Notes under the pieces: generated by a model
What the model was told of the DNA's origin: nothing
Database searches by the model: none
What the model saw: only the letters and a program-made list of their open reading frames with translations
Translations under genes and position numbers: made by a program
In this document: in pieces, positions 34,613 to 62,648 of the stretch
How positions within the stretch are numbered: position 1 is the first letter of the stretch
How the letters are laid out: each line of letters starts with the position of its first letter
Assembly (NCBI GenBank): GCA_902596065.1
Contig: CACJSL010000002.1
Location: forward strand, 12,794-76,793
DNA length: 64,000 nucleotides
From: an uncultured Alphaproteobacteria bacterium
GTDB taxonomy: Bacteria > Pseudomonadota > Alphaproteobacteria > HIMB59 > GCA-002718135
Direction of reading: 5' to 3'

Positions 34613-34628
34613 TTGAATGGTCATTCAA
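34613..34628. promoter_or_regulatory. Operator/promoter palindrome copy b: TTGAAT-ggtc-ATTCAA (exact; extended TTGAATG-gt-CATTCAA)
   Basis: It lies in the 63-bp gap between the TetR gene (minus strand) and the divergent flavoprotein operon. It ends 19 nt before the ATG at 34648; TATAAG lies at 34634-34639. Confidence 0.6.
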
Positions 34629-38953: not shown

Positions 38954-40105
38954 ATGGAATTTAATCTTTCAGAAGAACAGAATCTTTTAATTGATACTAC
39001 TAAATCATTCGTAAAAGCAGAATTATTGCAACATGAAGAACTATTAGAAAAAACAAATAATTTACCAAAAGAATTATATGATGAAATTAAGAAAAAAAGT
39101 ATTGAAGCAGGCTTATATGCTTGCAATATGCCAACTGAACATGGTGGTGGTGGCTTAAATGCTTTTGATTTAACCTTGGTTGAAAAACATCTAGGATTTG
39201 CATCACTTGCTTTAGCAGAAATTGCTTGGAGACCACAAAATATCTTAATGGCCTGCGAAGGTGAACTAGTAGATGAATACTTAAAACCGGCTATTACTGG
39301 AGAGAGAAAAGATTGTATTGCTATGACTGAACCTGGCGCTGGTTCAGATTTAAGAGGTATGAAAACGAAAGCAGTTAAAGATAGAAATGATTGGATTATT
39401 AATGGAACAAAACATTTTATATCTAATGCTCACATCTCTGACTTTGTTGTTCTTTTTGCTTCAACAGGTGAAGATGATAAAGGTAGAAATTCACTTTCTT
39501 GTTTTTTAGTTGATTTAAAACAAAAAGGAGTTGAAGTTGCTAAAGGATATGACTGTGTCTCTCACAGAGGATATGTAAATAATATTATACATTTTAATGA
39601 TTGTAGAATTCCTGGAAAAAATATTCTTGGAGAAAAAGATAAGGGTTTTGAATTAATGAATGTTTGGTTGGAAGCTACTAGATTAACTGTTGCGGCTACA
39701 TCGGTATCTAGAGCAGAAAGAGCTTTTGATATCGCTTTGGATTGGTCAGCTAATAGAAAACAATTTGGAAAAGTCATTGGAAAATTTCAAGGTGTTTCAT
39801 TTAAACTAGCTGATATGGCTACAGAAATTAAATTAGCAAATTTAATGTTAATGGAATCAGCTTGGAAGATTGATCAAAAAACATTAACTTCCCAAGATGC
39901 TGCAATGACAAAATTATTTTGCACTGAAATGTTAAGCAGAGTTTCAGATGAAGCAATTCAAATTTGTGGTGGAATGGGATTAATGGCAGATATACCTCTT
40001 GAAAGAATATGGCGTGATGCAAGAATAGAAAGAATTTGGGAAGGGACAAGTGAAATTCAACGGCATATTATTTCACGTTCTTTATTAAGACCCCTTGGAG
40101 CATAA
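38954..40105 (+). CDS. Acyl-CoA dehydrogenase
   Basis: 383 aa with EFNLSEEQ, CIAMTEPGAGSDL, QFGKVIGKFQGV, ICGGMGL and RIERIWEGTSEIQR. Confidence 0.9.
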   Translation: MEFNLSEEQNLLIDTTKSFVKAELLQHEELLEKTNNLPKELYDEIKKKSIEAGLYACNMPTEHGGGGLNAFDLTLVEKHLGFASLALAEIAWRPQNILMACEGELVDEYLKPAITGERKDCIAMTEPGAGSDLRGMKTKAVKDRNDWIINGTKHFISNAHISDFVVLFASTGEDDKGRNSLSCFLVDLKQKGVEVAKGYDCVSHRGYVNNIIHFNDCRIPGKNILGEKDKGFELMNVWLEATRLTVAATSVSRAERAFDIALDWSANRKQFGKVIGKFQGVSFKLADMATEIKLANLMLMESAWKIDQKTLTSQDAAMTKLFCTEMLSRVSDEAIQICGGMGLMADIPLERIWRDARIERIWEGTSEIQRHIISRSLLRPLGA

Positions 40106-40108
40106 TCT

Positions 40109-42145
40109 TTGAACTTAAAAAAACTTTTTAGACCAAAAAGCTTGGCTATAATAGGAGGCTATTGGGCAGACTTTGTTTATGATGGTAACAAAACTATTGG
40201 TTATAAAGGTAAAGTTTGGCATATAAATCCTTCACGAAAAAGCACCAAAAGAAAAAAATATTATAAAAATATTAAAGATCTACCAGAAATACCTGATTGT
40301 GTTTATCTTGCCGTTTCAAGAGATCAAACTGTAAAATTAATTAAAGATATATCTAATATGGGTGTTGGAGGAACAGTTTGCCTGGCTTCAAGATTTTCTG
40401 AACTTAATTCAAAAGAAGGAAAAGATAAAACTAATGAACTTATAAAAAACTCTGGTAAGATGCCTTTTCTGGGACCAAATTGTTATGGATTTATCAATTA
40501 TTTAGATAAAATTTCTGTATGGTCAGATCAAGTTTCTGGGAAACCAACAAAAAAAGGTGTTGCTATTATATGTCAGAGCGGAACAATTGGTAATACTATT
40601 AGTTTTAACAATAGATCTTTGCCTATTGGCTACATAATTTCTTTAGGTAATCAATCAAAAATAACCATTGAAGATGCAATTAATTATGCCCTTGATGATA
40701 ACAGAGTAACCGCCATTGGTATTTACGCCGAAAGTTTTACTAATACTGCAAAATTAATTAAAGTATTTAAAAAATCTAAGTTAAAGAACATACCTATAGC
40801 TATAGTCAAAGTAGGCAGATCTAAAATTGCATCTAAAACAATTCTAACACATACTGGCTCTCTTAGTGGGAAAGAAGATATTTATGATTCTTTGTTTCAA
40901 AGAATGGGGGTAGCAAAATGCAATACATTAGGCGAATTATGTGAAATTTTAAAATTATTTCATACACATGGAGTTTTAAAAGATGATCAAATTTCAATAA
41001 TGGGACCATCTGGAGGAGATATGGCTATGATAGGAGATGTGGCAGAATCTTTATCATTAAAATTTGGCAAAATACCTCCAAAAATAAAAAATGATTTAAA
41101 AAAAGTTAATCACCCAAGCGTGATAATATCAAATCCTTTTGATTTACAAACATACAATTGGAATGATCCTGAGAATCTAGAAAAAACATTTAAATTAATA
41201 TTCAAAACAAATTTTGCTTTAAATGCACTGATGTTAGATCTTCCAAATGTAGAAGATTGTGATACTGAAGAGTGGGATGCAATAGTTGATAAATTTATAA
41301 AATCTTCAAAAATAAAAAAAAATGGAGCAATTATTTCTTCACTTTCAGATACTCTTCCAAAATATTTAAGAGAAAAATGTCTAAAGTATAACGTTGTTCC
41401 TCTTCAAGGCATGTCAGAAAGCTTATTAGCTATAAGTAATTCAATAAAAATTGGCAAAGTATGGAAGAATTTTGCTGGTATAAAAATTCCTGAGAAAATA
41501 CCAAATCTTAAAAAGAAAATAAAAACATATTCAGAATATGAATCAAAGTTAATTTTAAAGAAAAACAAAATACCTATTCCAAAATCCTTAGTTACAAATA
41601 AAAAGAATATATTGCGTGATTCTAAAAAAATTGGATTTCCTTTAGTGGCAAAAATAAATTCAAATACAGTTTTTCATAAAACTGAAATTGGAGGTGTTGT
41701 AACAAATATTAATAGTGAAAAAGAATTAAAGAAAAAAACAAATAAATTTACTGGTAATATCTTAATTGAAAAAATGATAACTGATAATGTCTTTGAAATG
41801 ATTATAGGAATAAAAAACGATAATGAATTTGGTCCTACTATAATTTTAGGAGCTGGAGGAATTTATACTGAATTATTTAAAGATACAACCACCCTACTCT
41901 TACCTTTAACTAAAAGAATGATTATGGAAGAGATAAAAAAACTAAAATTTAGTAAAATATTATTTGGTTTTAGAGGAAAAAATAGTGGTGATTTAGATGC
42001 TTTAGTTTGTTCAATATTAAAAATTGCTAAATTTGCTGAAAATAATTATGATAAAATTTCAGAAGTTGATATAAATCCATTAATAGTTTGTAAAAAAGGC
42101 AAAGGGGTGTTTGCTGTAGATGCATTAATACATTATTTTAAATAA
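40109..42145 (+). CDS. ADP(NDP)-forming acyl-CoA synthetase, fused alpha/beta (CoA-binding + ligase-CoA + ATP-grasp domains)
   Basis: 678 aa. N-terminal LFRPKSLAIIGG CoA-binding fold, GPNCYGFIN, and a C-terminal ATP-grasp (E.ESK.IL....IPIP..., GFPLVAKI). TTG start 3 nt after the ACAD stop. Confidence 0.8.
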   Translation: MNLKKLFRPKSLAIIGGYWADFVYDGNKTIGYKGKVWHINPSRKSTKRKKYYKNIKDLPEIPDCVYLAVSRDQTVKLIKDISNMGVGGTVCLASRFSELNSKEGKDKTNELIKNSGKMPFLGPNCYGFINYLDKISVWSDQVSGKPTKKGVAIICQSGTIGNTISFNNRSLPIGYIISLGNQSKITIEDAINYALDDNRVTAIGIYAESFTNTAKLIKVFKKSKLKNIPIAIVKVGRSKIASKTILTHTGSLSGKEDIYDSLFQRMGVAKCNTLGELCEILKLFHTHGVLKDDQISIMGPSGGDMAMIGDVAESLSLKFGKIPPKIKNDLKKVNHPSVIISNPFDLQTYNWNDPENLEKTFKLIFKTNFALNALMLDLPNVEDCDTEEWDAIVDKFIKSSKIKKNGAIISSLSDTLPKYLREKCLKYNVVPLQGMSESLLAISNSIKIGKVWKNFAGIKIPEKIPNLKKKIKTYSEYESKLILKKNKIPIPKSLVTNKKNILRDSKKIGFPLVAKINSNTVFHKTEIGGVVTNINSEKELKKKTNKFTGNILIEKMITDNVFEMIIGIKNDNEFGPTIILGAGGIYTELFKDTTTLLLPLTKRMIMEEIKKLKFSKILFGFRGKNSGDLDALVCSILKIAKFAENNYDKISEVDINPLIVCKKGKGVFAVDALIHYFK

Positions 42146-42149
42146 TTAT

Positions 42150-42926
42150 ATGAATAAACCTATAAAAACTAAAATTGAAGGATCAATATTAGAAGTAACA
42201 ATTGATCGTCCAAAAGCGAACGCTATAGACTCTAAAACTAGCATAATATTAGGAGATATTTTTGCTGATTTTAGAGATAATCCTAAACTTAAAGTTGCTA
42301 TAATAACTGGAGGTGGTGAAAAATTTTTTTCTGCTGGATGGGATCTTAAAGCTGTAAATGAAGGAGAAGCTGCTGATGCAGATTATGGCGTAGGTGGATT
42401 TGGAGGATTGCAAGAATTACCAAATATGAATAAACCTATTATTTCTGCTGTTAATGGTATTGCGTGTGGAGGTGGTTTTGAAATCATGATTTCAGCAGAT
42501 ATTATTATTGCTGCAGATCACGCTACTTTTGCTTTACCTGAAATTAATGTTGGTGTCATAGCTGATGCGGCAACTATAAAACTAAGAAGAAGAATTCCCT
42601 ATCATGTAGCTGTCGAATTTTTAATGACAGGTAGGTGGATGGATGTCAAAGAAGCAAAGCACTGGGGTTTAGTTAATGAAATAGTTGATAAAAAAGATTT
42701 ATTAAAAAGATCCTGGGAAATTGCTGATAAAATTTCAAAAGGGCCTAATTTAATATATTCATCAATCAAAGAAGTTTTAAGAGAAACAGAAAATGAAAAG
42801 GAGATACCTTCTTTTGATATTCTTCGATCCTTAGAAACTGTAAAGAAAGTTTATGGAAGTGAAGACTTAAAAGAAGGTGCCTCTTCTTTTGTAAAAAAAA
42901 CTGATCCAAATTGGAAAGATAAATAG
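42150..42926 (+). CDS. Crotonase-superfamily hydratase, CaiD (carnitinyl-CoA dehydratase)-like
   Basis: 258 aa. The blocks [52 protein letters not shown] and [12 protein letters not shown] closely track the E. coli CaiD sequence as I recall it ([53 protein letters not shown]). Confidence 0.8.
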   Translation: [258 protein letters not shown]

Positions 42927-45985: not shown

Positions 45986-46555
45986 ATGAAAACTGTTAAA
46001 TTTAATGAAATGAAAGATGGGGATAAAGAAGATTATGAACTTCTTGCTAAATTTGAAGATAAATACATAGAAGGTACGGCTGATAGAGTTATTCGTATTT
46101 TAAAAGGTTTAGACAGTTCATTAGGAGGTTATAAAGTTTCTAGATTAGAACACTCTTTACAAACTGCATCAAGAGCACTGAGAGATAATGCATCAGAAGA
46201 AATGATAGTCGCAGCCCTATTACATGATATAGGAGATGAAATAGCTCCATTAAATCATTCAGAAATATCTGCAGCAGTATTAAGGCCTTTTGTTGCTGAA
46301 AAAACTCATTGGATAGTTCAAAAACATGGATTATTTCAATCTTATTATTATAATCATCATTATGGAAATGATCGAAATTTAAGAGATAAATATAAAGATC
46401 ATCCTTTTTTTATAGATACTGTTAATTTTTGCTCAAAGTGGGATCAAAATTCTTTTGATCCAAATTATGAAACTATTCCTCTTAAAGATTTTATTCCTTT
46501 AGTTTATAAAATTTTTAATAGAGACCCTCATAAACATGTATATTTGGGACTTTAA
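45986..46555 (+). CDS. HD-domain metalloprotein (phosphohydrolase fold; possible PhnZ/MIOX-like oxygenase)
   Basis: 189 aa with H56 (LEHSLQTA), H80-D81 (AALLHDIGD), further conserved-looking His (H91, H108, H114, H124/125, H139) and KWDQNSFD near the C-terminus. The EHSLQ.A....A.EEM..AALLHD pattern resembles PhnZ as I recall it. Confidence 0.7.
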   Translation: MKTVKFNEMKDGDKEDYELLAKFEDKYIEGTADRVIRILKGLDSSLGGYKVSRLEHSLQTASRALRDNASEEMIVAALLHDIGDEIAPLNHSEISAAVLRPFVAEKTHWIVQKHGLFQSYYYNHHYGNDRNLRDKYKDHPFFIDTVNFCSKWDQNSFDPNYETIPLKDFIPLVYKIFNRDPHKHVYLGL

Positions 46556-46560
46556 TTATT

Positions 46561-47028
46561 TTATTTTTTTAATTTATTAATAAGATGTAAATTTCCTGGT
46601 TTAAAATTATTTTTATTATCTTCTATAAAATTTTTAATTAAGCTACTTTTTGATTCCTCAAATTCAGTTACTTTGCGAGAATTCAAATCCACATATAATG
46701 AACAAACCTCTGTTGTAGCTGCTAAGTATTTTTCTGACTTGTGAATCATTTCAAGTTTATAAACAATACGTTTTTTATCAAAATCAATAAAAAGTAATTT
46801 AATATCAACTTCATCTCCAACTTTAACTTCCATGTCATAAGTTGTGTGCGATTCTACAGCAAAAGTAGTTCTTTTTTCAATTTTAGCTGCATCTTCTCCT
46901 ATATTAAATTTTTGCAGCAAAACCTCCCAAGCAGAATCAAAGAGATGAATATAAAAAGCAAGGTTCATATGACCGTTATAATCAGTCCATTCAGATTTAA
47001 CACGACCTGTTTTTAAATAAATACTCAC
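46561..47028 (-). CDS. Hotdog-fold (4HBT/YbgC-type) acyl-CoA thioesterase
   Basis: 155 aa. The N-terminal [15 protein letters not shown] matches the 4HBT-type D-x-N-x-H-(V/M)-N motif. It is divergent from the BKACE gene. Confidence 0.72.
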
Positions 47029-47071
47029 TTGTCTAATTCCTTATTCTGAGATACATCAAATTATATTAAAA

Positions 47072-47962
47072 ATGAACAATGAAGTTATAATAAGTTGTGC
47101 TGTTACTGGATCTGGTGATACTGCTAAAAAGCATCCTGAACTTCCAATAACTCCGAAACAAATAGCTGACGCTGCTATAGAGGCAGCTAAGGAGGGGGCG
47201 GCTATTGCTCATATGCATGTGCGAGAACCAGACGGAAAACCAAGCAGAAAACTTGAATACTATAAAGAGGTTGCAGATAGAATCAGATCAAGCGATACTG
47301 ATGTTGTAATCAATTTTACTACTGGTATGGGAGGAGACTTTGAAGTTGGAGAGGGAAAAGATCCTTTAAATCCTATAGGGCCTAACACCGATATGGTACA
47401 TGCCCTTGATCGTTTAGAGCATGTTGAAGAATTATTACCAGAAATATGCACTTTAGATTGTGGCTCTCTGAATTTTGGAGATACAAATATGCTATTTGTC
47501 CATACTCCAATCCAGTTAAGAGCTGCTGCAAAAAAAATGCAAGATTTAGGAGTTAAACCAGAAATGGAAGCTTTTGAAATGGGGCACTTATGGTTTGCAA
47601 ATCAATTATATAAAGAAGGACTAGTTGATGGACCTCCAATGTATCAAATATGTTTAGGTATACCTTGGGGCTCTCCAGCTGATACAAGCTCAATGAAAGT
47701 AATGGCAGACATGATACCTTCTGAAGGTATCTGGGCTGGTTTTGGTATAGGAAGACACCAAATGCCTATGGCTGCTCAAGCTGTAGTTTTAGGTGGAAAT
47801 GTTCGAGTAGGTCTTGAAGATAATTTATATTTAAAAAAAGGAGTATTAGCATCGAACGGTCAATTAGTTGAAAAAGCTGCAAGAATAGTTGATGATTTGG
47901 GTGCAAAAATATTAAATCCTGAAGAAGTAAGAGAAAAATTAAAATTAAAAAAACATTTTTAA
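47072..47962 (+). CDS. BKACE (beta-keto acid cleavage enzyme, DUF849 / 3-keto-5-aminohexanoate cleavage enzyme family)
   Basis: 296 aa. [13 protein letters not shown]...[38 protein letters not shown] is the characteristic DUF849 N-terminus, followed by [12 protein letters not shown] near the C-terminus. Confidence 0.85.
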
Positions 47963-47968
47963 ATTTTT

Positions 47969-48976
47969 ATGAGTATTGAATCAAAATATGTTGCCTTAAA
48001 AGAATACATACCTATGGGGAATCCTAGTTTATCTCATTTTGATTTAAAATCTGAAACAATTTCTCTAAAAAATGATGATGAAGTTTTAGTAACTAATAAA
48101 TGGATATCCGTAGATCCTTATATGAGAGCTAGAATGACTGAAAGGAAAAATTATAAACCTCCTTTTGAAATTGGTAAACCAATGGAGGGAACAGCAATTG
48201 GAGAAATAATTGAAAGTAAATCAAATAATTTTAAAAAAGGAGATTTCGTACTAAGTGAATTTGGTTGGAGAGATAATTTTATTGCAAATTCAGAATCACT
48301 TAAAAAAATTAACCCTATTAATGTACCTATACAAACATATTTAGGTCCTTTAGGCTTTACTGGTCATACAGCATATATTGGACTTTTTAGAATAGCAAAA
48401 ATAAAACAAAACCAAACTATTCTTGTTTCTTCTGCAGCAGGAAGTGTAGGATCTACTGTTTGTCAAATTGCTAAAATATTAGGATGTAAAGTTATTGCAA
48501 GTACTGGTAGTGATGAAAAAGTAGAGTGGCTAAAAAAAGAAATTGGTGTTGATCATGCTTTTAATTACAAAAAAATTGATAATCTAGTTTTGCACTTTAA
48601 AGATATTTGTCCAGAAGGTTTTGATATTTACTTTGATAATGTTGGGGGAGATTTTCTTGAGGCGGCAATTTTTAGAATGAAAAATTTTGGTAGAATTGTT
48701 ATTTGTGGAAGGATTTCTCAAATGAATGCAACTTCACCTGGTGAAGGATTAAAAAATATGGCTCATGTGTTAGTAAAAAGATTAACTATTAAAGGTTTTT
48801 TAATATTTGATCATTATGAAGATTATAAAGATTTTGAAAATGATATGAGCAATTGGGTAATAAATAAAAAAATTAAATGGAGAGAAACTATCGTTGAGGG
48901 TATTGAAAATTCACCTCAAGCTTTCTTAGACTTATTAAATGGCAAAAATATAGGCAAAATGATTGTTAAAATCTAA
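47969..48976 (+). CDS. NADP-dependent MDR oxidoreductase (zinc-independent, PTGR1/YncB/CurA-like enone reductase type)
   Basis: 335 aa with ISVDPYMR, VSSAAGSVGSTVCQIAK (AxxGxxG), and no zinc-ligand Cys cluster. Confidence 0.82.
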   Translation: MSIESKYVALKEYIPMGNPSLSHFDLKSETISLKNDDEVLVTNKWISVDPYMRARMTERKNYKPPFEIGKPMEGTAIGEIIESKSNNFKKGDFVLSEFGWRDNFIANSESLKKINPINVPIQTYLGPLGFTGHTAYIGLFRIAKIKQNQTILVSSAAGSVGSTVCQIAKILGCKVIASTGSDEKVEWLKKEIGVDHAFNYKKIDNLVLHFKDICPEGFDIYFDNVGGDFLEAAIFRMKNFGRIVICGRISQMNATSPGEGLKNMAHVLVKRLTIKGFLIFDHYEDYKDFENDMSNWVINKKIKWRETIVEGIENSPQAFLDLLNGKNIGKMIVKI

Positions 48977-50418
48977 ACAGTCACATAAGGGGACGTGCCT
49001 CGATAATTAATATCTAATTTTAAATCTTTATCTATGGGAGGAAATGCTCTTTGTTGACAATTAATTCTAGGACATATCCTGCACGAAATTCCTATGGGTG
49101 TCTCTAAGTTTTTATTTTGAAGGTCCATTCCTTCAGAATATGTTAATTCTTTTGCATATTGAATATCACAACCTAAGCCAATAGAAACAAAACTTTTTGG
49201 CATACCATGTTTTTCTATTCCTTTTTCAAAAGCTCTAGCTATACAAAAATATACTTTTCCATCTGGCATTCTTGATATTTGAGGATGAATTTTTCCAGGA
49301 TTTAAAAAAGCTATATATACATTCCATCTTGGACATGAGCCTCCATGTCTTGGAATATGAATACCAGATAAAGAAAATCTTTTAGATACATTGCCAGCTA
49401 TATCTGTTTTTAAAAAATGAAATGGCACTCCCTCAGAGCCAGGTCTTTGTAAATTAGTTAAACGATGAGTAATTTGTTCAAAGCTAGCAGCATAATGATG
49501 CATTAATATCTCAATATCATACTTGTATTTTTTTGCACTTTTAAGAAAATCTTCATAAGGCATCAATAGTGCAGCTGAAAAATAATTTAATAATGATATT
49601 TTCAGTAAAGCAATTAATTCATCTGAATAAAATTTATTTTTATTAATTATTTGTTGTATAATTTTTTGACATTCACAATAACCTATTTGATAGGCTAGAT
49701 GAAAATTTCTAGCAGTATAGGTAAGCATTTCTGATAAAATAAGAGTATTATTTTTACTATCAAATTTTTTAACTGATTTTTCATCTTCTTCTGGTGGTAC
49801 TATTTTAACTTTTATATTATGCTCGCTTTGTAAATAACTTGTAAATTTGATTTCAGTAGACCCTATTCCAGGTCCAAACTGTAAGCCAATTTTATCTCTT
49901 AAGGACTCGGCTTTTTTTTCTAAAGAATCAAAATAATTTTTATTTTCTTGCAAAAAGTCTGAAACAATTTCTACTGGCAAACGAGTAGATTTTCTTTCTG
50001 AAATACCTGATTCTACATCCATAATTTCAAGACGATTTTGCATATCATCTCTTAAGCTTTTGTAAGAATCATTGAGCATCAGCAATGCTTTAGCAATATT
50101 AGGATTACTACCAATAAATTCAGCAGTCTCTAAATTAGTGATATCTAAGTCATCAAATATTTCATTGCTTAAAACTTCCATTGTGTCAGCTAATATTCTT
50201 TTATTACTCTCTACTGTTAAATCTTTTAAAGAAAGATTTAGCTCATTACCTATTTTGATCAAAAGAGGAACAGTAAGTGTTCTTCTGCCATTTTCTAAAA
50301 GATTTAAATAACTTGCTGATATACCAAGATTTTTTGAAAAATCAGATTGAGATATGCCTTTTGATCTCCTCTCTTTTCTAATTCTAGGACCAAGGTTTAT
50401 TAATTCAGAAGATTTCAT
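48973..50418 (-). CDS. ScfR/RamB-type regulator (XRE HTH + ImmA/IrrE-like metallopeptidase-like domain + DUF2083-type C-terminus)
   Basis: 481 aa. N-terminal XRE HTH (IRKERRSKGISQSDFSKNLGISASYLNLLENGRR) and a Cys-rich C-terminal region (GGSCPRWNV...CRICPRINCQQR), as in short-chain fatty acyl-CoA regulators. Confidence 0.78.
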   Translation of the reverse strand: MKSSELINLGPRIRKERRSKGISQSDFSKNLGISASYLNLLENGRRTLTVPLLIKIGNELNLSLKDLTVESNKRILADTMEVLSNEIFDDLDITNLETAEFIGSNPNIAKALLMLNDSYKSLRDDMQNRLEIMDVESGISERKSTRLPVEIVSDFLQENKNYFDSLEKKAESLRDKIGLQFGPGIGSTEIKFTSYLQSEHNIKVKIVPPEEDEKSVKKFDSKNNTLILSEMLTYTARNFHLAYQIGYCECQKIIQQIINKNKFYSDELIALLKISLLNYFSAALLMPYEDFLKSAKKYKYDIEILMHHYAASFEQITHRLTNLQRPGSEGVPFHFLKTDIAGNVSKRFSLSGIHIPRHGGSCPRWNVYIAFLNPGKIHPQISRMPDGKVYFCIARAFEKGIEKHGMPKSFVSIGLGCDIQYAKELTYSEGMDLQNKNLETPIGISCRICPRINCQQRAFPPIDKDLKLDINYRGTSPYVTV

Positions 50419-50736: not shown

Positions 50737-53421
50737 TTAACCTGTATTTTTCATTGAAGCTGAAATACCTGAAATAGTAACAATCATTGCATCCATTAGT
50801 ATTTTTTTGCTTTTTGTATTTATATTTTTCTTGTTTAATCTTTTCATTATATCTGCTTGAAGTAAGTTTAAAATTTCTGCATAGGTATTTCTTAGTTTGA
50901 TTGATTTTCTGAAAGCTTTTCTTTGATTTATTATATTATTAGGAATAATTTTTTTATTAATTTCAATTAATTCAATAAGTTTCGCCCTTAATTCATTTCC
51001 AATTTTTTTTAATTCAGGAGTTGCTAAACATTCTTCATAATATCTAATTACTCGTTGATCTGTTTTTATCAAAACCATATCTAACATATCCATCATTTCA
51101 TAAAAAAATGGCCAGTTTTTAATCATCTCATCTAAAATTTTTTTATTTTTTCCTTTTGAAGCAAAATTTAAAGCTTCATATGTGCCCAGCCATGCTGGTA
51201 ATAACATTCGAATTTGTGTCCAGGCAAAAACCCAAGGTATAGCTCTTAAACTTTTAATATCTTTTGAAGCATTTCTCTTAGAAGGTCTCGATCCAATATA
51301 TAATTTGCCAATAATATTCTTTGGGGTGACTTTATCAAAATATTTTAAAAAATCTTCATCTTCTAATAAATAATGTCTATATGCTTTACTTGAAATAACG
51401 CTCATTGAATCTATTAATGCCCTCCATTCTTTACTAGGCTTGTTAGGAGGAGATAAAGTTGCTTCAAGTACTGCTCCTATATAGGTCCCTAAACTATATT
51501 CAGCCATAGATTCAGATCCATATTTTTGTTGTATTACTTCTCCTTGTTCAGTTACTCTAGTCATTCCCATTACAGTGCCTGGTGGTTGAGATAAAAGTGC
51601 TGCATAAACTGGGCCTCCACCTCTACCAACTGACCCCCCTCTTCCGTGAAAGAAATTCAATTTTATTTTATGCTTATTAGCTACTGAACATAATTTTTCT
51701 TGAGCACAATATTGAGCCCAGCTAGCTGCGAATTTTCCAGCATCTTTACTGGAGTCTGAATATCCAATCATTATTTCTTGCTCATTTGAAAAAATATTTG
51801 TGTACCATCTATTTTTAAATAAATTATCTACAATTTTAGATGAATTTTGTAAGTCTGATAATGTTTCAAACAGTGGCACTATTCTTAAAGGGTTTTTAAC
51901 TCCAGCTTCTTTTTGCAATAGTAAAACAGCTAGAATATCAGAAACTTTAGATGTCATAGAAATAACATAAGCTCCTAAAAATTCGTTTGAAGTATTAGCA
52001 ATCATTTTAAAAGTTTCCCATGTTTCTTTATCAGTATTATTAAATTTAATTTTGTTAGGTATTAGTGGTCTTTTAGATTTATATTCTCTAGATAAAAATT
52101 TTATTTTTTCTTGTTCTGATAATTTTGTATATTCCTTTAAGGCTAATTTCTTACAAATTGTATTTAATAATGAAGTATGTCTTGATGACTCTTGTCTAAT
52201 ATCTAATTTTGCTAAATTTAATCCAAAAGTATGACTAAGTCTTATTATATCGAGAACTAAGCCATTAGCTATAATATCACATTTTACTAAACATAAAGAA
52301 TTATAAACTTCATTTAAAGGATCAAGAATTTCATTTATAGAATTAACTAATAATTTTTTTTTAGGTTCTCTTTTCTCTAAAAGAGCATCTTCTATTTCTC
52401 TTTGAGTTTGTTGTAATTTATTTCTAATAGGTCTTAAAAAAACTCTGTATGGTTCCCAAGTTTTCCCTACTTGTTTTTTTATTTTTTTTGAGCAATCAAA
52501 TAATGATAAACTTTGAATTAATTTAGTAAATTCTTTCTCATATAAGCTCGCTGCTTCCCATCTAGATAACAAAACTACTTCCATAGTTGTTTTAGATGTA
52601 ACATTTGGATTTCCATCTCTATCTCCACCCATCCAAGAGCTAACCTTGATTGGAGAATAATTAATAGGTAAGTTTTTATTAGTAAATTTATTAACTGCAT
52701 TATCAAATCTTGAACATATTTTAGGAATCGAATTCCAGAGTGAGTCCTCAATTACAGCCAAACCCCATTTGGCTTCTTCAACAGCCGTAGGTCTAGATCT
52801 TTTTATTTCATCCGTTTTCCATACTGAAGTAATTTCTTCTTTTAATTTTTTTTCAAGTATTCCTTTTTCTCTCTTAATATTTTGTTTTTTAAGAATTTGT
52901 ATATTATTTAATTCGTCTAATATATTATTTACATTGGCATATTTTTGAATCAATGTTCTTCTTTTAACTTCTGTAGGGTGAGCTGTTAAAACTAAATCAA
53001 TACTTATATTTTTTGCTACATTAAAAAATTTATTTTTAGAAACATTTGGATTTTTTTGAACATCTAATAACGCTTCTTCTAAAATTACTATTTCATTAGT
53101 CTCTTGAGTTTTACGAATAACATGATCATGAATATTGTGAATACTATACAATGATTCAGCAATATTAGAAAAATCTAAAAACCTACTAAATGATTTAGCT
53201 ATAATTAAGGTTTCTGTCGAAGTAAGATTTGAAATTTGATTTTTTAATTTTTTAAATGATTGTTTATTTAAACCTTCATTACTTCCTCTACTATTTTTTG
53301 AAAGAGTTCTAATCTTTTCAATCTTATCAAAAATAGCAGTGTTTTCTTGTTTTTTTATAACACTACCTAATATTTCTCCTAAGAGATGAATAGTAGATGA
53401 AAGTTCAATTTTTTTTGTCAT
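50737..53421 (-). CDS. ppc: Phosphoenolpyruvate carboxylase
   Basis: 894 aa with VLTAHPTE, IGYSDSSKDAG, FHGRGGSVGRGGGP and a C-terminal ...MKNTG. Confidence 0.95.
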   Translation of the reverse strand: MTKKIELSSTIHLLGEILGSVIKKQENTAIFDKIEKIRTLSKNSRGSNEGLNKQSFKKLKNQISNLTSTETLIIAKSFSRFLDFSNIAESLYSIHNIHDHVIRKTQETNEIVILEEALLDVQKNPNVSKNKFFNVAKNISIDLVLTAHPTEVKRRTLIQKYANVNNILDELNNIQILKKQNIKREKGILEKKLKEEITSVWKTDEIKRSRPTAVEEAKWGLAVIEDSLWNSIPKICSRFDNAVNKFTNKNLPINYSPIKVSSWMGGDRDGNPNVTSKTTMEVVLLSRWEAASLYEKEFTKLIQSLSLFDCSKKIKKQVGKTWEPYRVFLRPIRNKLQQTQREIEDALLEKREPKKKLLVNSINEILDPLNEVYNSLCLVKCDIIANGLVLDIIRLSHTFGLNLAKLDIRQESSRHTSLLNTICKKLALKEYTKLSEQEKIKFLSREYKSKRPLIPNKIKFNNTDKETWETFKMIANTSNEFLGAYVISMTSKVSDILAVLLLQKEAGVKNPLRIVPLFETLSDLQNSSKIVDNLFKNRWYTNIFSNEQEIMIGYSDSSKDAGKFAASWAQYCAQEKLCSVANKHKIKLNFFHGRGGSVGRGGGPVYAALLSQPPGTVMGMTRVTEQGEVIQQKYGSESMAEYSLGTYIGAVLEATLSPPNKPSKEWRALIDSMSVISSKAYRHYLLEDEDFLKYFDKVTPKNIIGKLYIGSRPSKRNASKDIKSLRAIPWVFAWTQIRMLLPAWLGTYEALNFASKGKNKKILDEMIKNWPFFYEMMDMLDMVLIKTDQRVIRYYEECLATPELKKIGNELRAKLIELIEINKKIIPNNIINQRKAFRKSIKLRNTYAEILNLLQADIMKRLNKKNINTKSKKILMDAMIVTISGISASMKNTG

Positions 53422-53658
53422 AAAGTTTTTTTATGTATAAAAAAAGATAATTTAGAAAAATTAATATATTAATATTTTAATAAATACAGATGATTTTTTT
53501 ATTAAAACTCATGGGTTTCTATTATAAATTTTACTTAAATTATTAAAAAAAGGTAATTTTATTAAATAACTTTTAGTGCTCTATTTAATACACTTGTTTT
53601 GAACAAAATTATTTTTTTTATTTTTTAATATATTTTTAATATTAGATTAATCTATAAA

Positions 53659-54444
53659 TTATTTATTTTTCCAAACTGGAGATCTTTTTTCAATAAATGA
53701 GTTTATTCCTTCAATAGCATCTTTTTTCATCATATTTTCTGTCATAATTTTACTAGCATATGAATACGCTTGCTTCATAGGTTGTTCTAACTGTTTATAA
53801 AAAGCCTCTTTTCCAATGGCTAAAACTAAATTTGATTTCGAAGAAATTAAATTGGCAATTTTTGTTACTTCCCTATCTAACTTTGAAGAAATAAAAAAAT
53901 CATTTATTAAGCCTATTTCTTTGGCATATTTTGCAGTAATTGGCTCACCAGTAAGAAGCATTTCCATAGATCTTTTTCTATTAACTTTTCTACTCAAAGC
54001 CACCATAGGAGTACTGCAAAATAATCCAATATTAACACCTGGGGTAGCAAAAATTGCTTTGCTATCACTGTAGGCCAAATCACAACTTGCAACTAATTGG
54101 CATCCTGCAGCAAATGCTGCACCATGAATCTTAGCTATAACTGGTTTTTTGTGATTAACTATATTTAACATTAGTTCAGAACATTTATTAAATAATCTTT
54201 GATATTCAGATTTTCCTTTTAACCCTCTTATTTCTTTTAAATCATGTCCAGCACAAAAACCTTTTCCTTGACCCTCAATTATAATTACTTTTACTTTATT
54301 ATCTAAATTTAATTTTTTAAAAATTTCTATTAAAGATAAAATCGTATTAAAGGATAAAGCATTGTAAGTTGAAGGTTCAGCTAAGATAATTTTAGCAATA
54401 CCTTTATTATCAATTGATAAGATAATATTTTTGTAACTTTTCAT
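53659..54444 (-). CDS. Enoyl-CoA hydratase/isomerase (crotonase) family protein
   Basis: 261 aa with NALS, GKGFCAGHDLKE, KIHGAAFAAGCQL and a C-terminal EGINSFIEKRSPVWKNK. Confidence 0.85.
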   Translation of the reverse strand: MKSYKNIILSIDNKGIAKIILAEPSTYNALSFNTILSLIEIFKKLNLDNKVKVIIIEGQGKGFCAGHDLKEIRGLKGKSEYQRLFNKCSELMLNIVNHKKPVIAKIHGAAFAAGCQLVASCDLAYSDSKAIFATPGVNIGLFCSTPMVALSRKVNRKRSMEMLLTGEPITAKYAKEIGLINDFFISSKLDREVTKIANLISSKSNLVLAIGKEAFYKQLEQPMKQAYSYASKIMTENMMKKDAIEGINSFIEKRSPVWKNK

Positions 54445-54463
54445 TTAATGAAATTTATCTATT

Positions 54464-54493
54464 TTGCATTAGTATACTTAGCAAAACTATATT
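54464..54493 (+). promoter_or_regulatory. Candidate promoter of the homocysteine methyltransferase gene (TTGCAT-18 nt-TATATT)
   Basis: TTGCAT at 54464-54469 and TATATT at 54488-54493. The ATG at 54508 implies a leader of about 8 nt. The gap also contains the direct repeat ATTAGTATA at 54468-54476 and 54491-54499. Confidence 0.3.
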
Positions 54494-54507
54494 AGTATAG
54501 AAAAATA

Positions 54508-55407
54508 ATGATTGAGAAAAAGAAAAAATACATTCTGGATGGTGGTTCTGGACAAACTCTACTAGAAATGGGTCTTAAGCCAGAAGGAAGACTTTGGTCA
54601 GCCACAGCTTTAATTAATAAAAATTTGCATAAAATGATTATAGATATGCATTTAGATTTTATAAATGCTGGATCTGATTTAATTGTAACTAGTAATTTTT
54701 CTGTAAGAAAAAGAAGGTTTTTAGAATATAATAAGTTAGAATTTTTTGAACAAGCTACCAATGATTCAGCTATACTAGCTAAAAAGGCAAAAGATATTTC
54801 TCGAAAAAATGTTTTAATAGCAGGATCTCTTCCTACTCAAGAAATTGTTTATTTTGCAAAAAGGGTCGCAGATGATAAAGAAATATATAATGGCTTTAAT
54901 GAAACTGCTAAAATTTTAGATCCTAACGTTGATTTATTTTATTTAGATGTTTTGAGTAGTATTAATGAAATTAAAATTGCCTGTGAAGCTATTAAAGATT
55001 TTGAAAAACCAATTTTAATTGGAGTTCATTTAAATAATAAAGGTTATTTGCCTTCTGGAGAAACAATCAATGATTTAATACCTATTACCAATAATTATAA
55101 TACTTGTGGAATAATAGCAGCTTGTGTTTCGCCAGAAATAGTAAATCTTGCAATGCCTATATTAACAAATCAAAAATTACCTTTCGGATTTAAAGTTAAT
55201 GCATTTAAAAATATACCTGAGAATGATCCTTTGGATGCCGATTTATATGATAATGGATATCCGACAGAAAGATATGGCACACGTGCTAATGAATTTAATC
55301 CAGAAGTATTCAAAAAATTTGTTCAAAATAAATTAAAAGATGGCGCAACTTTATTGGGCGGTTGCTGCGAAATTAAACCAAGACACATAAAAGCCTTAAC
55401 TAAATAA
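54508..55407 (+). CDS. Homocysteine S-methyltransferase domain protein (BHMT/MmuM-like)
   Basis: 299 aa with ILDGGSGQTL, an internal Cys (IIAACVSPE) and C-terminal LLGGCCEIKPRHI, the zinc-binding Cys/Cys-Cys pattern of Hcy-binding domains. Confidence 0.8.
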   Translation: MIEKKKKYILDGGSGQTLLEMGLKPEGRLWSATALINKNLHKMIIDMHLDFINAGSDLIVTSNFSVRKRRFLEYNKLEFFEQATNDSAILAKKAKDISRKNVLIAGSLPTQEIVYFAKRVADDKEIYNGFNETAKILDPNVDLFYLDVLSSINEIKIACEAIKDFEKPILIGVHLNNKGYLPSGETINDLIPITNNYNTCGIIAACVSPEIVNLAMPILTNQKLPFGFKVNAFKNIPENDPLDADLYDNGYPTERYGTRANEFNPEVFKKFVQNKLKDGATLLGGCCEIKPRHIKALTK

Positions 55408-55426
55408 TTAAAATTTTAAATCTAAA

Positions 55427-57058
55427 TTATTTATAAATTTCAGCTTTTAAAGGTGCTTCTTCTCTTCCTAAAATTAGATCTGAAGCTTTTTCTGCAATCA
55501 TTACTGTTGCTGCATTCAAGTTTCCACTAACAATATCTGGCATAATAGAAGAATCAATAATCCTTAAATTTTGGATACCATGAACTTTAGTTTCTTCATC
55601 TACAACTGACATTTTATCGATACCCATTTTATTAGTACATGAAGGATGATATGCTGTGTCTCCAGTATTTCTTATTATTTCATCTAGTTGTTCATTAGAT
55701 TGGCAATCATTTCCTGGTCGAATTTGCTCACCTAAATAAGAAGACAAACTTGGTTGACTAAAAATATTATTTGCTATTTTCACACTTTCTCGCATTTGCT
55801 CTAAATCTTCTTCTTCTTTTAAATAATTAAATTGAATTATTGGATCGTCATTAGCATTTTTACTGCGAAGCTTAACAAAACCTCTACTTTTAGGTCTATT
55901 AGGAGATGCATGAAATTGAAAACCATCAAATGAAGGATTAGTTAATCCATGATTAATTACTAAAGATGGAAAGAAATGGAATTGAATGTTTGGATGTGAA
56001 TATTTAGAGTTAGTTTTAACAAAGCCACCTAATTCAAGGTGTGAATGAGCTAACATTCCTTTTTTAAATAAGAACCATTTAAGACCCTCTATGCCTTGAG
56101 TGATATAATTAGTTGACAAATTATATAAAGTTTCTTTTTTCTTTGATTTGTGCTGAATATATATTTCAAAATGATCTTGAAGATTTTGCCCTACTCCAGG
56201 CAAGTCATGAACTATATCAATAGCCATTTTTTTTAGTTCAGTTGCATCACCTATTCCTGATAATTGTAATAACTTTGGTGAATTAATTGATCCAGCAGAC
56301 AATAAAACTTCTTTTCTTGCAAAAAATCTTTCTTTTTTATTGTTTACTTCTACTTCAATTCCAATTGCAATTTTGTTTTTAAATAAAATTTTTAAAACAT
56401 TAGAATTTGTAAAAATTCTTAAATTTGGTTTGTTTCTAATTGTATTCAAATAGGCTTTTCCAACTCCATATCTTTGTCCTCGATTGATAGTCACATCAAA
56501 TGTGCCAAAACCTTCTTGTTTAAACCCATTTGAATCTTCAAATAATTCAAAACCAGCTTCTTTGGCTGCATTTAAAACAGATTGAAATAAAGGAAATCCT
56601 TCATTAATTTTAGATCTATTTACTTTTAATGGTCCATAACCTCCTCTATAAAGATTTTCACCTCCAGACCATGTTTCTAATTTTTTAAAATATGGTAAAA
56701 CATTTTCATAGCTCCATTTATTTAAACCATAAGATGCCCATCTATTAAAGTCTTCCGGATGACCTCTTACAAAAACCATTCCATTATGTGAGGAACAACC
56801 TCCAATCATTTTTCCTCTTGGACAAAAAATTCTTCTGTTATTTAAATATGGTTCTGGTTCAGAATAGTACTTCCAATTCATATTTGGATCATGCATTGTA
56901 TACAAAAGTGCACTCGGCATATTCACTTTCCAGGTATTATCAGTTAGTCCTGATTCAAATAATGCTATAGAATTTTTTTCATTAAAACTTAAACGATTTG
57001 CTAGAACACACCCAGCGGACCCTGCGCCAATTATTAAATAATCGAAGTCTTGATCCAC
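55427..57058 (-). CDS. GMC-family oxidoreductase, choline dehydrogenase-like
   Basis: 543 aa with FDYLIIGAGSAGCVLANRLS, GGCSSHNGMV and a C-terminal HPSCTNKMG...LRIIDSSIMP. Confidence 0.85.
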   Translation of the reverse strand: MDQDFDYLIIGAGSAGCVLANRLSFNEKNSIALFESGLTDNTWKVNMPSALLYTMHDPNMNWKYYSEPEPYLNNRRIFCPRGKMIGGCSSHNGMVFVRGHPEDFNRWASYGLNKWSYENVLPYFKKLETWSGGENLYRGGYGPLKVNRSKINEGFPLFQSVLNAAKEAGFELFEDSNGFKQEGFGTFDVTINRGQRYGVGKAYLNTIRNKPNLRIFTNSNVLKILFKNKIAIGIEVEVNNKKERFFARKEVLLSAGSINSPKLLQLSGIGDATELKKMAIDIVHDLPGVGQNLQDHFEIYIQHKSKKKETLYNLSTNYITQGIEGLKWFLFKKGMLAHSHLELGGFVKTNSKYSHPNIQFHFFPSLVINHGLTNPSFDGFQFHASPNRPKSRGFVKLRSKNANDDPIIQFNYLKEEEDLEQMRESVKIANNIFSQPSLSSYLGEQIRPGNDCQSNEQLDEIIRNTGDTAYHPSCTNKMGIDKMSVVDEETKVHGIQNLRIIDSSIMPDIVSGNLNAATVMIAEKASDLILGREEAPLKAEIYK

Positions 57059-57840
57059 TAAATCATTCTTTCAGTATTTCCATCCACACTTATAGATTGA
57101 CCAGATATATTTTTAGAAAAGTCACTTAGTAAATAAATTATAATAGAAGTTATTTCATCTTTTGATACAAATGATCTCATAGACACCATAGATTCAAATT
57201 CTTTTTTTATAATAGAGGTTTTGCTCTTTAAAAGATTAGCTTTTGCTTCAATCACTCTATCCATTCTCTTACCTTCTACTGATCCAGGACAAACAGCATT
57301 AACTCGAATATTATGTTTTCCTAACTCCATAGCCATGCTCTTGGTAAGACCTATAATTGCCCATTTGCTTGCCGCATAAGGTGTTCTTTGAGGAAAACCA
57401 TATAAACCGGCAGAGGAAGATAGATTAATAATAGAACCAGACTTATTTTTTTTTAATAATGGAACTGAATATTTTGAAAAATAAAAATGACTATTTAGAT
57501 TAGTAGATATAGTATTTTCCCATTCAGTGTTTGTAATTTTATCTAAATATTTTGTTGGTCCTGCAATACCAACATTATTAATCAAACCATCAATGCTTTT
57601 TATAAAATTTATAGACTCAAAATATTTTTTAACCTGTGAAGAATCATTAACATCTAAATGATAAGCATGAATCTTATTTTTATATTTCTTATTCCTTTGA
57701 AGTTTATCAATCTTTTTTTTATCTATATCTGTAATAAAAACATATCCTCCAAGATCAATAATTTTTTTTGCAATAGAAAAACCAATACCATCTGCCGCTG
57801 CAGAAATTATAAATTTTTTATTTTTAAAACTAATTTTCAT
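57058..57840 (-). CDS. Short-chain dehydrogenase/reductase (SDR)
   Basis: 260 aa with ISAAADGIGFSIA (a variant of TGxxxGIG), NNVG and YAASKWA (YxxxK). Its stop overlaps the downstream GMC start by 1 nt. Confidence 0.85.
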   Translation of the reverse strand: MKISFKNKKFIISAAADGIGFSIAKKIIDLGGYVFITDIDKKKIDKLQRNKKYKNKIHAYHLDVNDSSQVKKYFESINFIKSIDGLINNVGIAGPTKYLDKITNTEWENTISTNLNSHFYFSKYSVPLLKKNKSGSIINLSSSAGLYGFPQRTPYAASKWAIIGLTKSMAMELGKHNIRVNAVCPGSVEGKRMDRVIEAKANLLKSKTSIIKKEFESMVSMRSFVSKDEITSIIIYLLSDFSKNISGQSISVDGNTERMI

Positions 57841-57845
57841 ATAAA

Positions 57846-58997
57846 TTATTTAAAATATGGAATTACTTTTTCAGAAAATAAATTCATACTTTTTAATATT
57901 TTTTTATATTCTATACCTGGAAATTGCTGTAATAAAACAATATGTTGAAGATTAATTGATTCAATGTAGTAATTAATTTTTTCTTTAATGTATTTGCTAT
58001 CACCTACCCAAATTAGATCATGATCTAATAAAAAATCGAACCAACTATTATTTAAATCTTTGTTTGTTAACTCAGCCCCTTCATCTAAATATGATTTTCT
58101 TGACCATTCCCCTGAAGGCCTACTTCCACTTAAAAATTCATAATATAGATTAATTGATTGTTCAACATCTCTACGAGCTTCTTCATATGAATCTGCTACA
58201 TAAATTATAACACAAATACCTACATTTCTTCCTAAATCAATTTTATCATTTCTGTACTTTAAAGCTGATGATTTATATTGTTCCCAACAAGTATTAAGTT
58301 TATTTAATGGATTTGACATTCCAATGACATTATACCCCATCATACCTGCAAGATTATAAGTTTGAGGAGTATTAGACATTAACCAAACAGGAGGATGTGG
58401 TTTTTGAAAAGGTTTTGGATGTATATACATACCTATATATTCGCCATCTTCTTTATGATATTTTTTGTCCAAAGGATTAAAAAATCTATTTGTCTCTTTC
58501 CATCCTGGCTCTGGAAATTTGTAAAACTGCCCTTCATATTTAAAAGGATCTTCCGTCCAAGCTTTTAAAATTATATCTAAACATTCTTTGAACAAATCAT
58601 TACTTTTTTTATTATCTCTTCTGTCTGCATCTTTATTGAACTGTATACAAACTCTTTCATTAATTCCTTTGCTTGCACCAAAGTCAACTCTTCCTTCAGT
58701 TAAATGATCCAATACCGCTATATCTTCAGCAACTCTAAGAGGGTGCCAATCAGGCAAAACAACTGGGCTTTGGCCAACTCTAATTTTTTTTGAATGAGCT
58801 GCGAGGTCAGCACACATTAGTATAGGATTTGGTGGTGCATTTAAATAACCATTATGTGCAAAATGATGTTCAGTTAACCATACTGTCTCAAAACTAGCAT
58901 CTTCAGCTAGTTGAGTTTGTTCTCTCATCATCTTAGCAGTTTCAATCCAAGGAATATTTTCACCAGGATTAAAAAAAGGGATAAAATCAAATCTCAT
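57846..58997 (-). CDS. Luciferase-like (LLM class) flavin-dependent monooxygenase/oxidoreductase
   Basis: 383 aa with a TIM-barrel LLM pattern: FETVWLTEHHF, IRVGQSPVVLPDWHPLRVAEDIAVLDHLTEGRVDFG. No flavin reductase gene is adjacent. Confidence 0.78.
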   Translation of the reverse strand: MRFDFIPFFNPGENIPWIETAKMMREQTQLAEDASFETVWLTEHHFAHNGYLNAPPNPILMCADLAAHSKKIRVGQSPVVLPDWHPLRVAEDIAVLDHLTEGRVDFGASKGINERVCIQFNKDADRRDNKKSNDLFKECLDIILKAWTEDPFKYEGQFYKFPEPGWKETNRFFNPLDKKYHKEDGEYIGMYIHPKPFQKPHPPVWLMSNTPQTYNLAGMMGYNVIGMSNPLNKLNTCWEQYKSSALKYRNDKIDLGRNVGICVIIYVADSYEEARRDVEQSINLYYEFLSGSRPSGEWSRKSYLDEGAELTNKDLNNSWFDFLLDHDLIWVGDSKYIKEKINYYIESINLQHIVLLQQFPGIEYKKILKSMNLFSEKVIPYFK

Positions 58998-59860: not shown

Positions 59861-59864
59861 AAAA

Positions 59865-60524: not shown

Positions 60525-60533
60525 TGAACTGTT

Positions 60534-61577: not shown

Positions 61578-61579
61578 AA

Positions 61580-62596: not shown

Positions 62597-62601
62597 TATT
62601 G

Positions 62602-62630
62602 AAAAAATCTAGGGGAATTTAATCCCCTAG
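62602..62630 (-). terminator. Intercistronic intrinsic terminator / attenuator between proX and proW
   Basis: The minus strand reads CTAGGGGA-TTAAAT-TCCCCTAG (perfect 8-bp stem, 62630-62609), then A and TTTTTT (62607-62602), ending 5 nt before the proW ATG (62596). Confidence 0.6.
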
Positions 62631-62648
62631 AAAACTATTAATGATTAT

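Follow-up and report, generated by a model that had tools for sequence, protein, structure and literature searches.

Excision of the L-carnitine dehydrogenase gene from a BKACE-thioesterase cluster of the HIMB59/AEGEAN-169 lineage, with purifying selection on the genes that remain

In the route from carnitine to glycine betaine described for Pseudomonas, carnitine dehydrogenase forms 3-dehydrocarnitine, a BKACE enzyme converts this product with acetyl-CoA to betainyl-CoA and acetoacetate, and a thioesterase releases glycine betaine. The BKACE family is described as promiscuous; its group G5 takes positively charged substrates, and the genomic contexts of G5 outline carnitine degradation. The present analysis concerns a module of thioesterase, BKACE and MDR oxidoreductase genes at positions 46561-48976 of a 64-kb stretch of DNA from the HIMB59/AEGEAN-169 group (the whole of which is referred to here as the window). 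The reading that we favour, with moderate confidence, is that this locus is a dehydrogenase-deleted derivative of the HIMB59/AEGEAN-169 carnitine-to-glycine-betaine cluster, in which the later genes are still used and the beta-keto acid is supplied from elsewhere. The features of the locus, in window coordinates, are the following.

46561-47028, minus strand: hotdog-fold thioesterase, 155 aa, GTG start (PF13279 4HBT_2, E 7e-22)
47029-47071: divergent intergenic gap between the thioesterase and BKACE genes, 43 nt (sequence read)
47072-47962, plus strand: BKACE, 296 aa (PF05853, 327 bits)
47963-47968: deletion scar ATTTTT, 6 nt, from the BKACE stop to the MDR start
47969-48976, plus strand: zinc-independent NADP(H)-dependent MDR of the double-bond reductase / PTGR1 / CurA family, 335 aa (PF16884 ADH_N_2 and PF00107)
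48973-50418, minus strand: ScfR/RamB-type regulator with HTH_3, M78-like and ScfRs domains (PF09856, E 9e-61)
45986-46555, plus strand: HD-domain protein, 189 aa, with PhnZ/TmpB-like motifs, neighbour of the thioesterase (weak Pfam HD match)

The open reading frame listing and Pfam confirm the layout given in the initial annotation, in which the thioesterase gene is divergent from the BKACE gene across the 43-nt gap and the MDR gene follows BKACE after 6 nt, with the coordinates and families listed above. The ScfR-type gene is convergent with the MDR gene and overlaps it by 4 nt. Gene content was established by Pfam scans of every open reading frame of at least 100 aa across the 64 kb. These scans found no HADH-type (3HCDH-family) dehydrogenase in the window, and a carnitine dehydrogenase profile built from the proteins of 78 relatives reached a best E value of only 0.17 on the same 64 kb, which bears out the earlier statement that no such enzyme is encoded there.

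The ancestral state was sought in 80 species-level genomes retrieved with the BKACE protein, onto all of whose loci (numbered with the prefix L) ten query proteins were mapped. With few exceptions, these are assemblies from single cells or metagenomes, and their labels read uncultured Alphaproteobacteria, Pelagibacterales, MarineAlpha5 or HIMB59. In the dominant gene order, an HD-domain gene is convergent with the thioesterase gene, which is divergent from BKACE; BKACE is followed on its strand by a 3HCDH-family gene and then by the MDR gene, which is convergent with the ScfR gene. The 3HCDH-family gene is present between BKACE and MDR in 77 of the 80 genomes, a count that includes L037, where the locus is incomplete and the dehydrogenase N-terminus is visible. 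It is absent only from L006 (AG-414-E06) and L007 (HIMB59-LRMED-201), both 98.8-98.9% identical to the window at the DNA level, and from L008 (AG-426-I04), which is 94.1% identical. A metagenome scaffold, L086 (98.1% identical to the window), is likewise without it. The relatives' gene scores 334-355 bits against the NCBIfam L-carnitine dehydrogenase model NF005471, versus 204-224 bits against generic 3-hydroxyacyl-CoA dehydrogenase, and the public names of the cluster dehydrogenases are "L-carnitine dehydrogenase" or "carnitine 3-dehydrogenase". In the nearest dehydrogenase-bearing relatives, L087/L088 and L091, the BKACE is 90-91% identical to that of the window and the flanks are otherwise the same. 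Furthermore, the thioesterase gene is divergent from BKACE in every related locus with enough flank, ScfR is kept at the same position in 74 related loci, and the HD-domain gene is found in 79. Collectively, these comparisons show that the ancestral order comprised the HD-domain, thioesterase, BKACE, L-carnitine dehydrogenase, MDR and ScfR genes, in the orientations just given.

At the point where the relatives encode an L-carnitine dehydrogenase of 307-321 aa, the window retains only the scar. The junction TAA-ATTTTT-ATG, made up of the BKACE stop codon, 6 nt and the MDR start codon, is identical in the window, L006, L007, L008 and L086, that is, in five dehydrogenase-less assemblies comprising the window, two single-cell genomes, one metagenome-assembled genome and one metagenome scaffold (L086). 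In L087, the closest relative that bears the dehydrogenase, a gene of 939 nt occupies this position; it begins 9 nt past the BKACE stop, and its 3' end overlaps the MDR start. The dehydrogenase-less genomes are nested inside the HIMB59/AEGEAN-169 clade, whose deepest members, such as L001 (BKACE 81% identical), have the dehydrogenase, and BKACE-dehydrogenase adjacency is also found in the outgroups L003-L005, on Agrobacterium pAt and on a Caballeronia plasmid; loss is therefore the parsimonious direction. The arrangement in the window is a precise, single and lineage-specific excision of exactly the dehydrogenase open reading frame, confined to one shallow sublineage that comprises the window and the four other assemblies.

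Two trivial accounts of the junction were considered and rejected. An assembly artefact does not agree with one junction common to five independent assemblies. Recent import of the deletion allele by recombination is not consistent with the 200-nt stretch that contains the junction, where the window and L008 differ by 4.5%, a value not below that of the flanks. The deletion consequently dates back at least as far as that divergence.

The effect of the loss on the remaining genes was evaluated by counting substitutions between the window and L008, both of which lack the dehydrogenase and have the same junction. Synonymous divergence (dS), the ratio of nonsynonymous to synonymous divergence (dN/dS) and the binomial P versus neutrality are given for each gene.

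BKACE: 36 synonymous and 5 nonsynonymous substitutions, dS 0.22, dN/dS 0.033, P 2e-19
Thioesterase: 28 synonymous and 4 nonsynonymous substitutions, dS 0.40, dN/dS 0.027, P 2e-16
MDR: 22 synonymous and 4 nonsynonymous substitutions, dS 0.12, dN/dS 0.042, P 3e-12

BKACE, thioesterase and MDR have been under strong purifying selection since the dehydrogenase was lost, and their sequence signatures are unchanged. When the dehydrogenase-less sequences were compared with 73-82 other clade members at sites at least 90% conserved in the latter, the sole private residue was I109V in BKACE, valine at position 109 being the residue of canonical carnitine operons too; no private residue was found in the thioesterase or the MDR. 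Selection of this strength on BKACE and thioesterase indicates that both are still used. This is difficult to reconcile with the view that the pathway is broken and that the two proteins are functionless leftovers in a streamlined genome. It is true that the first enzyme is gone, that the 64 kb hold no HADH homologue, that no relocated dehydrogenase orthologue is seen among the closest public homologues, and that cluster genes have been lost singly in other clades, as in the MDR-less genomes. However, a dN/dS of 0.03 over a dS of 0.2-0.4 between two dehydrogenase-less genomes rules out neutral evolution (P about 1e-16 to 1e-19), the BKACE and thioesterase reading frames are intact in all five dehydrogenase-less assemblies, and the age of the deletion is at least 4-5% local divergence. 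We therefore consider decay very improbable.

Regarding the function of the retained enzymes, the BKACE matches PF05853 with 326.9 bits (cut-off 24.8) over positions 2-274 of 274, and among solved structures 3c6c (E 4e-91) and 9zsc match it best. Once a 6-residue tag offset in 2y7d is allowed for, its residues H47, H49, E249, E166, R245 and D250 align to His46, His48, Glu230, Glu143, Arg226 and Asp231 of Kce, the first three of which are reportedly zinc ligands and the last three reportedly catalytic (work of Bellinzoni et al. 2011). Homologues of the window BKACE at 57-67% identity adjoin annotated L-carnitine dehydrogenase genes in three outgroup operons, the order of which is GlxA/CdhR-type regulator, binding protein, BKACE, L-carnitine dehydrogenase and thioesterase. 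Residues 3-144 of the thioesterase match positions 345-484 of the 495-residue NCBIfam carnitine 3-dehydrogenase PRK07531 (E 2e-19), a region that corresponds to the C-terminal thioesterase-like domain of fused enzymes. The assignment of BKACE and thioesterase to a carnitine-type cleavage pair, already proposed in the initial annotation, is well supported as a prediction from homology and synteny, the linkage to L-carnitine dehydrogenase in 77 of the 80 genomes and in the outgroup operons included. Judging from family knowledge and synteny, the BKACE would condense and cleave 3-dehydrocarnitine with acetyl-CoA to give betainyl-CoA and acetoacetate, the thioesterase would free glycine betaine from betainyl-CoA, and glycine betaine would then pass to demethylation genes elsewhere in the window. 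The betaine-handling genes of the window comprise a homocysteine S-methyltransferase-family gene, GCV_T-linked oxidases and a GbcA-like Rieske protein; choline dehydrogenase and an OpuAC transporter are also encoded.

Purifying selection that continues without the dehydrogenase would also be expected if BKACE and thioesterase were kept by a second, carnitine-independent task on another cationic beta-keto acid. The promiscuity of the BKACE family and the definition of G5 only by positively charged substrates are in line with this, as is the conservation, just upstream, of genes for a class-III aminotransferase, an MFS transporter, a GNAT protein and the HD-domain protein, which have no role in the canonical pathway. 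Against such a task, neither an alternative substrate nor the enzyme producing it can be named from the sequence, the BKACE pocket is unchanged in the dehydrogenase-less lineage, and the partner of BKACE is carnitine dehydrogenase in 77 of 80 relatives and in all outgroups. A second substrate is, on balance, rather unlikely.

A candidate for the missing step lies directly downstream. The MDR contains PF16884 (114.7 bits) and PF00107 (90.2 bits), and its cofactor motif AAGSVGS fits AAxGxxG. Against the NCBIfam CurA model (curcumin reductase) it scores 341.5 bits, below the cut-off of 440, and is thus a family member and not a CurA equivalog. Its closest solved relatives are NADPH double-bond reductases (7e4d, E 1e-97), PTGR1, LTB4 12-hydroxydehydrogenase (1v3t) and allyl alcohol dehydrogenase (4hfj), in agreement with its earlier placement in an enone-reductase family. 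In about 70 relatives the MDR gene follows the dehydrogenase gene, often with overlapping stop and start codons, and in L001 it is still attached though the downstream genes differ. The reverse of the loss in the window is seen in another clade, made up of L024, L065, L080, L083 and the fragment L095: there the dehydrogenase gene abuts ScfR and the MDR is absent, the MDR-less junction lying at about 7826-7840 in L024, L065, L080 and L083. The members of this clade are mostly 78-84% identical to one another at the DNA level, L065 and L080 being 96.5% identical. The MDR is an ancestral neighbour and not a substitute that arrived with the loss of the dehydrogenase. It evolves faster than its neighbours in all lineages (72% identity between L010 and L022, versus 93% for BKACE); faster or redirected change in the MDR since the dehydrogenase disappeared was looked for and not seen, as the rate is high in every lineage and lineage-specific substitutions are lacking.

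The initial annotation had implied that the MDR, or a distant SDR, takes over the dehydrogenase role as a distinct design. Under this proposal, the MDR would replace the lost enzyme by converting L- (or D-) carnitine to 3-dehydrocarnitine with NADP+, and BKACE, MDR and thioesterase would be complete in themselves. The MDR gene does lie 6 nt behind BKACE after the deletion and is presumably co-transcribed with it, its family includes named secondary and allylic alcohol dehydrogenases (1v3t, 4hfj), and none of the 80 genomes lacks both the dehydrogenase and the MDR. This last point, however, is without statistical power, as it rests on 3 genomes without the dehydrogenase, all from one event, and 4 without the MDR in the set of 80. 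The dehydrogenase and the MDR coexist in most of the 77 dehydrogenase-bearing genomes, and an enzyme found alongside the dehydrogenase in about 70 relatives did not arrive as its replacement. Furthermore, after the loss the MDR shows no lineage-specific change and is no more divergent than between dehydrogenase-bearing genomes, and it is itself dispensable in the clade that has the dehydrogenase without it. Most of its closest solved relatives reduce C=C bonds, and carnitine does not belong to the allylic alcohols. The distinct-design claim is consequently not upheld, and replacement by the MDR appears quite unlikely.

In a broader form, non-orthologous displacement of EC 1.1.1.108 would have the MDR, the PhnZ-like HD-domain protein and the SDR at 57058-57840 as its candidates. 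If true, such a non-homologous replacement would explain both the selection on BKACE and thioesterase and the observation that dehydrogenase and MDR, each of which can be lost singly, were never seen lost together; we regard it as unlikely.

A different way around the missing enzyme involves the region 38954-42926, where genes for an acyl-CoA dehydrogenase, an ADP-forming acyl-CoA synthetase and an enoyl-CoA hydratase stand in a row. It is possible that they form a CoA-level gamma-butyrobetaine/crotonobetaine branch that feeds the carnitine genes. The upstream ligase-hydratase pair is also found in L087, L104, L010, L022, L078 and L079. In a CoA-level bypass, these genes would turn gamma-butyrobetaine or crotonobetaine into L-carnitinyl-CoA, a general 3-hydroxyacyl-CoA dehydrogenase would oxidise it, and the thioesterase, with or without BKACE, would process the product; the free-acid dehydrogenase could then be spared. 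Published work describes a route at the CoA level that leads from gamma-butyrobetaine to carnitine, and the pair is conserved upstream in several relatives. The best NCBIfam match of the hydratase is crotonobetainyl-CoA hydratase (289 bits, versus 198 for the next model), and the acyl-CoA dehydrogenase matches crotonobetainyl-CoA dehydrogenase with 188 bits. All the CaiA/CaiD-like scores, however, are under the curated cut-offs (500 bits for CaiD, in the case of the hydratase), and the acyl-CoA dehydrogenase scores higher as acryloyl-CoA reductase (271 bits). In addition, relatives that bear the dehydrogenase have the same upstream genes, and BKACE acts on the free beta-keto acid, so that a CoA route alone leaves its retention unexplained. 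This bypass is very improbable as the explanation of the locus.

Separately, in the 3' half of the acyl-CoA synthetase gene (41072-42271), the mismatch between the window and L008 is 30-38%, compared with 1-5% in the adjacent 10 kb; the edge of this segment is a sharp recombination or hypervariable boundary.

Under the reading favoured here, that of a dehydrogenase-deleted cluster whose later genes are still used, the beta-keto acid would come from another enzyme that is not encoded beside the module, either a dehydrogenase with its gene in another part of the genome or a promiscuous dehydrogenase. The MDR would be a co-transcribed neighbour with a separate NADPH-dependent reductase role and not a replacement dehydrogenase. 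These two are the weakest steps of the proposed mechanism. The possible accounts of the supply rank roughly, in order of belief, as a dehydrogenase elsewhere, a second cationic beta-keto acid as substrate, oxidation by the MDR or a different neighbour, the CoA-level bypass and a decaying relic.

Two observations weigh against the favoured reading. Firstly, a metagenome scan with the nearest relative's dehydrogenase returned 10 loci, and all of those with judgeable flanks proved to be the usual cluster, not a relocated gene. The two public proteins closest to that dehydrogenase (78-79% identical) both lie within BKACE-dehydrogenase-MDR clusters, and the other listed public matches are 74-77% identical, a band that includes an L091-type cluster copy. 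That no relocated orthologue appears among the closest public homologues slightly weakens the idea of a gene elsewhere; this is suggestive, not conclusive. Secondly, the conserved and often overlapping place of the MDR gene after the dehydrogenase gene suggests that the MDR may be a member of the pathway.

Regulation of the module was examined in the 43-nt gap at 47029-47071. As reported earlier, the gap is without the BetI-type TTGAAT palindrome: a sequence search found TTGAAT-N4-ATTCAA at 20648 and 34613 in the window and not in the gap. A partly conserved AGATACAT stretch is present in the gap in several but not all relatives, and promoter and terminator scans, the gap included, gave matches at chance level only. 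The adjacent ScfR-type regulator contains PF01381, PF06114 and PF09856 in this order, which corresponds to the HTH_3, M78-like and ScfRs architecture; against NCBIfam RamB it scores 415 bits, below the cut-off of 700, and it is not a RamB equivalog. The motif TTTGCAAA, reportedly an operator in work on PccR, has no copy in 47029-47071, and its frequency across the window is that expected by chance. In most genomes the next gene beyond ScfR is GMC choline-dehydrogenase-like, and in L087 (10671-11300), L091 and L104 (11771-13081) it encodes isocitrate lyase; in the window lineage (50737-57058), ScfR is separated from the GMC gene by genes for phosphoenolpyruvate carboxylase, enoyl-CoA hydratase and homocysteine methyltransferase. 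Control of the module by ScfR was raised in the initial annotation; the adjacency of the two is conserved, and no operator was found in the gap. ScfR may instead control central C2/C3 metabolism and not the carnitine genes.

The two palindromes themselves, both perfect, are located in other parts of the window. The copy at 20648-20663 is at the junction of the GbcA-like Rieske gene and a DAO oxidase gene, and that at 34613-34628 is between a BetI-type TetR gene (33931-34584) and an amine-oxidase gene. A looser TTGAAT-type pattern gave 3 matches versus 1.05 expected. The palindrome is likely the operator of the BetI-type TetR repressor.

The BKACE gene is visibly richer in G+C than its neighbours, as had been noted before: 37.3% versus 27-30%, in a window of about 29% overall. 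The excess resides in codon position 1 (0.55) and in a composition rich in Gly, Ala, Pro and Arg, and G+C at third codon positions is only 0.19, versus 0.10-0.17 in the neighbours. The excess therefore reflects protein constraint and not recent transfer, and a foreign origin of the gene was rejected on these grounds.

Among the neighbouring genes, the HD-domain gene is the most conserved neighbour of the thioesterase gene; in L104 a homocysteine-methyltransferase-family gene replaces it. The motifs LEHSLQTA and AALLHDIG of the encoded protein, together with its length, resemble PhnZ/TmpB-type diiron oxygenases, and the NCBIfam models Phn-HD and TmpB match its residues 43-87 only. Towards the right end of the window, a same-strand run on the minus strand (55427-63674) encodes an OpuAC binding protein, a permease, an ATPase, a GST, an alpha/beta hydrolase, a luciferase-like monooxygenase, the SDR and a choline-dehydrogenase-like GMC oxidoreductase. 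L001, a distant relative, has just the SDR gene after the transporter genes, without the GST-hydrolase-monooxygenase insert. Just past the right end of the window, beyond OpuAC, the same-lineage contig L101 (521-4787) encodes a betaine-aldehyde-dehydrogenase-like protein, an EamA transporter, a GBBH-like dioxygenase and a class II aldolase. The dioxygenase scores 327 bits as gamma-butyrobetaine dioxygenase and 283 bits as TmpA, neither of which reaches the cut-off; should this enzyme produce L-carnitine, the lack of the dehydrogenase would be all the more puzzling. The sole Rfam match in the window at the gathering threshold is a tRNA gene at 2564-2645 on the minus strand.

Carnitine, gamma-butyrobetaine, choline and glycine betaine are abundant and labile sources of nitrogen and methyl groups in seawater, and HIMB59/AEGEAN-169 is a widespread group of streamlined bacterioplankton. 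Nearly every sampled genome of this group has a compact carnitine-to-betaine cluster with an MDR partner; carnitine is not mentioned in the HIMB59/AEGEAN-169 literature found by search, the two main genomic studies included. The window is a gene-loss version of a known pathway, a natural knockout of its first step. If BKACE and thioesterase are truly active, it would indicate either that an enzyme which oxidises carnitine has gone unrecognised or that carnitine-type BKACEs have a second physiological substrate; if the dehydrogenase is located elsewhere in the genome, it would represent ordinary gene relocation.

Compared with the cdhCAB-type aerobic pathway from L-carnitine to glycine betaine, the window has the same two downstream functions, BKACE and thioesterase. 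In contrast to that pathway, it has no carnitine dehydrogenase (EC 1.1.1.108), no GlxA/AraC-type CdhR and no adjacent CaiX; its thioesterase gene is separate and divergent, and an MDR and an ScfR-type regulator are attached. A CdhR-type activator (DJ-1/PfpI with HTH_18) was not found in the Pfam scans of the window and is present in L003, L089 and L090. A candidate for a carnitine-binding protein of this kind, the OpuAC-family binding protein with its ABC transporter (60534-63674), lies about 11.5 kb from the MDR 3' end, in a separate operon.

Annotated carnitine operons are found in Caballeronia sp. M1242 (plasmid NZ_CP071131) and on pAt of Agrobacterium fabrum C58, the BKACEs of which are 64% and 57% identical to that of the window. 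In these operons, a GlxA regulator is accompanied by binding protein, BKACE, L-carnitine dehydrogenase and thioesterase genes, or by a fused carnitine 3-dehydrogenase. Unlike the window, they contain the dehydrogenase, have no MDR or ScfR neighbours, and carry the thioesterase downstream on the same strand or fused.

Kce, the 3-keto-5-aminohexanoate cleavage enzyme of lysine fermentation (PDB 2Y7D-G), belongs to the same fold family as the BKACE, and its zinc-binding and catalytic residues align. The match to Kce is nevertheless weaker than that to 3c6c (E 2e-46 versus 4e-91), the NCBIfam Kce equivalog model gives 263 bits, short of its cut-off of 382, and the position of Kce Glu14 is occupied by Gly15-Asp16. 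No lysine-fermentation genes were found near the BKACE gene.

The closest system is the cluster of the HIMB59/AEGEAN-169 group itself, as represented by L087, L104, L010 and L001. The window lineage differs from it by the absence of the dehydrogenase gene, with 6 nt left between BKACE and MDR. Gene order, orientation and flanks are the same, and the window's proteins are 81-91% (BKACE), 74-84% (thioesterase) and 67-81% (MDR) identical to those of this cluster.

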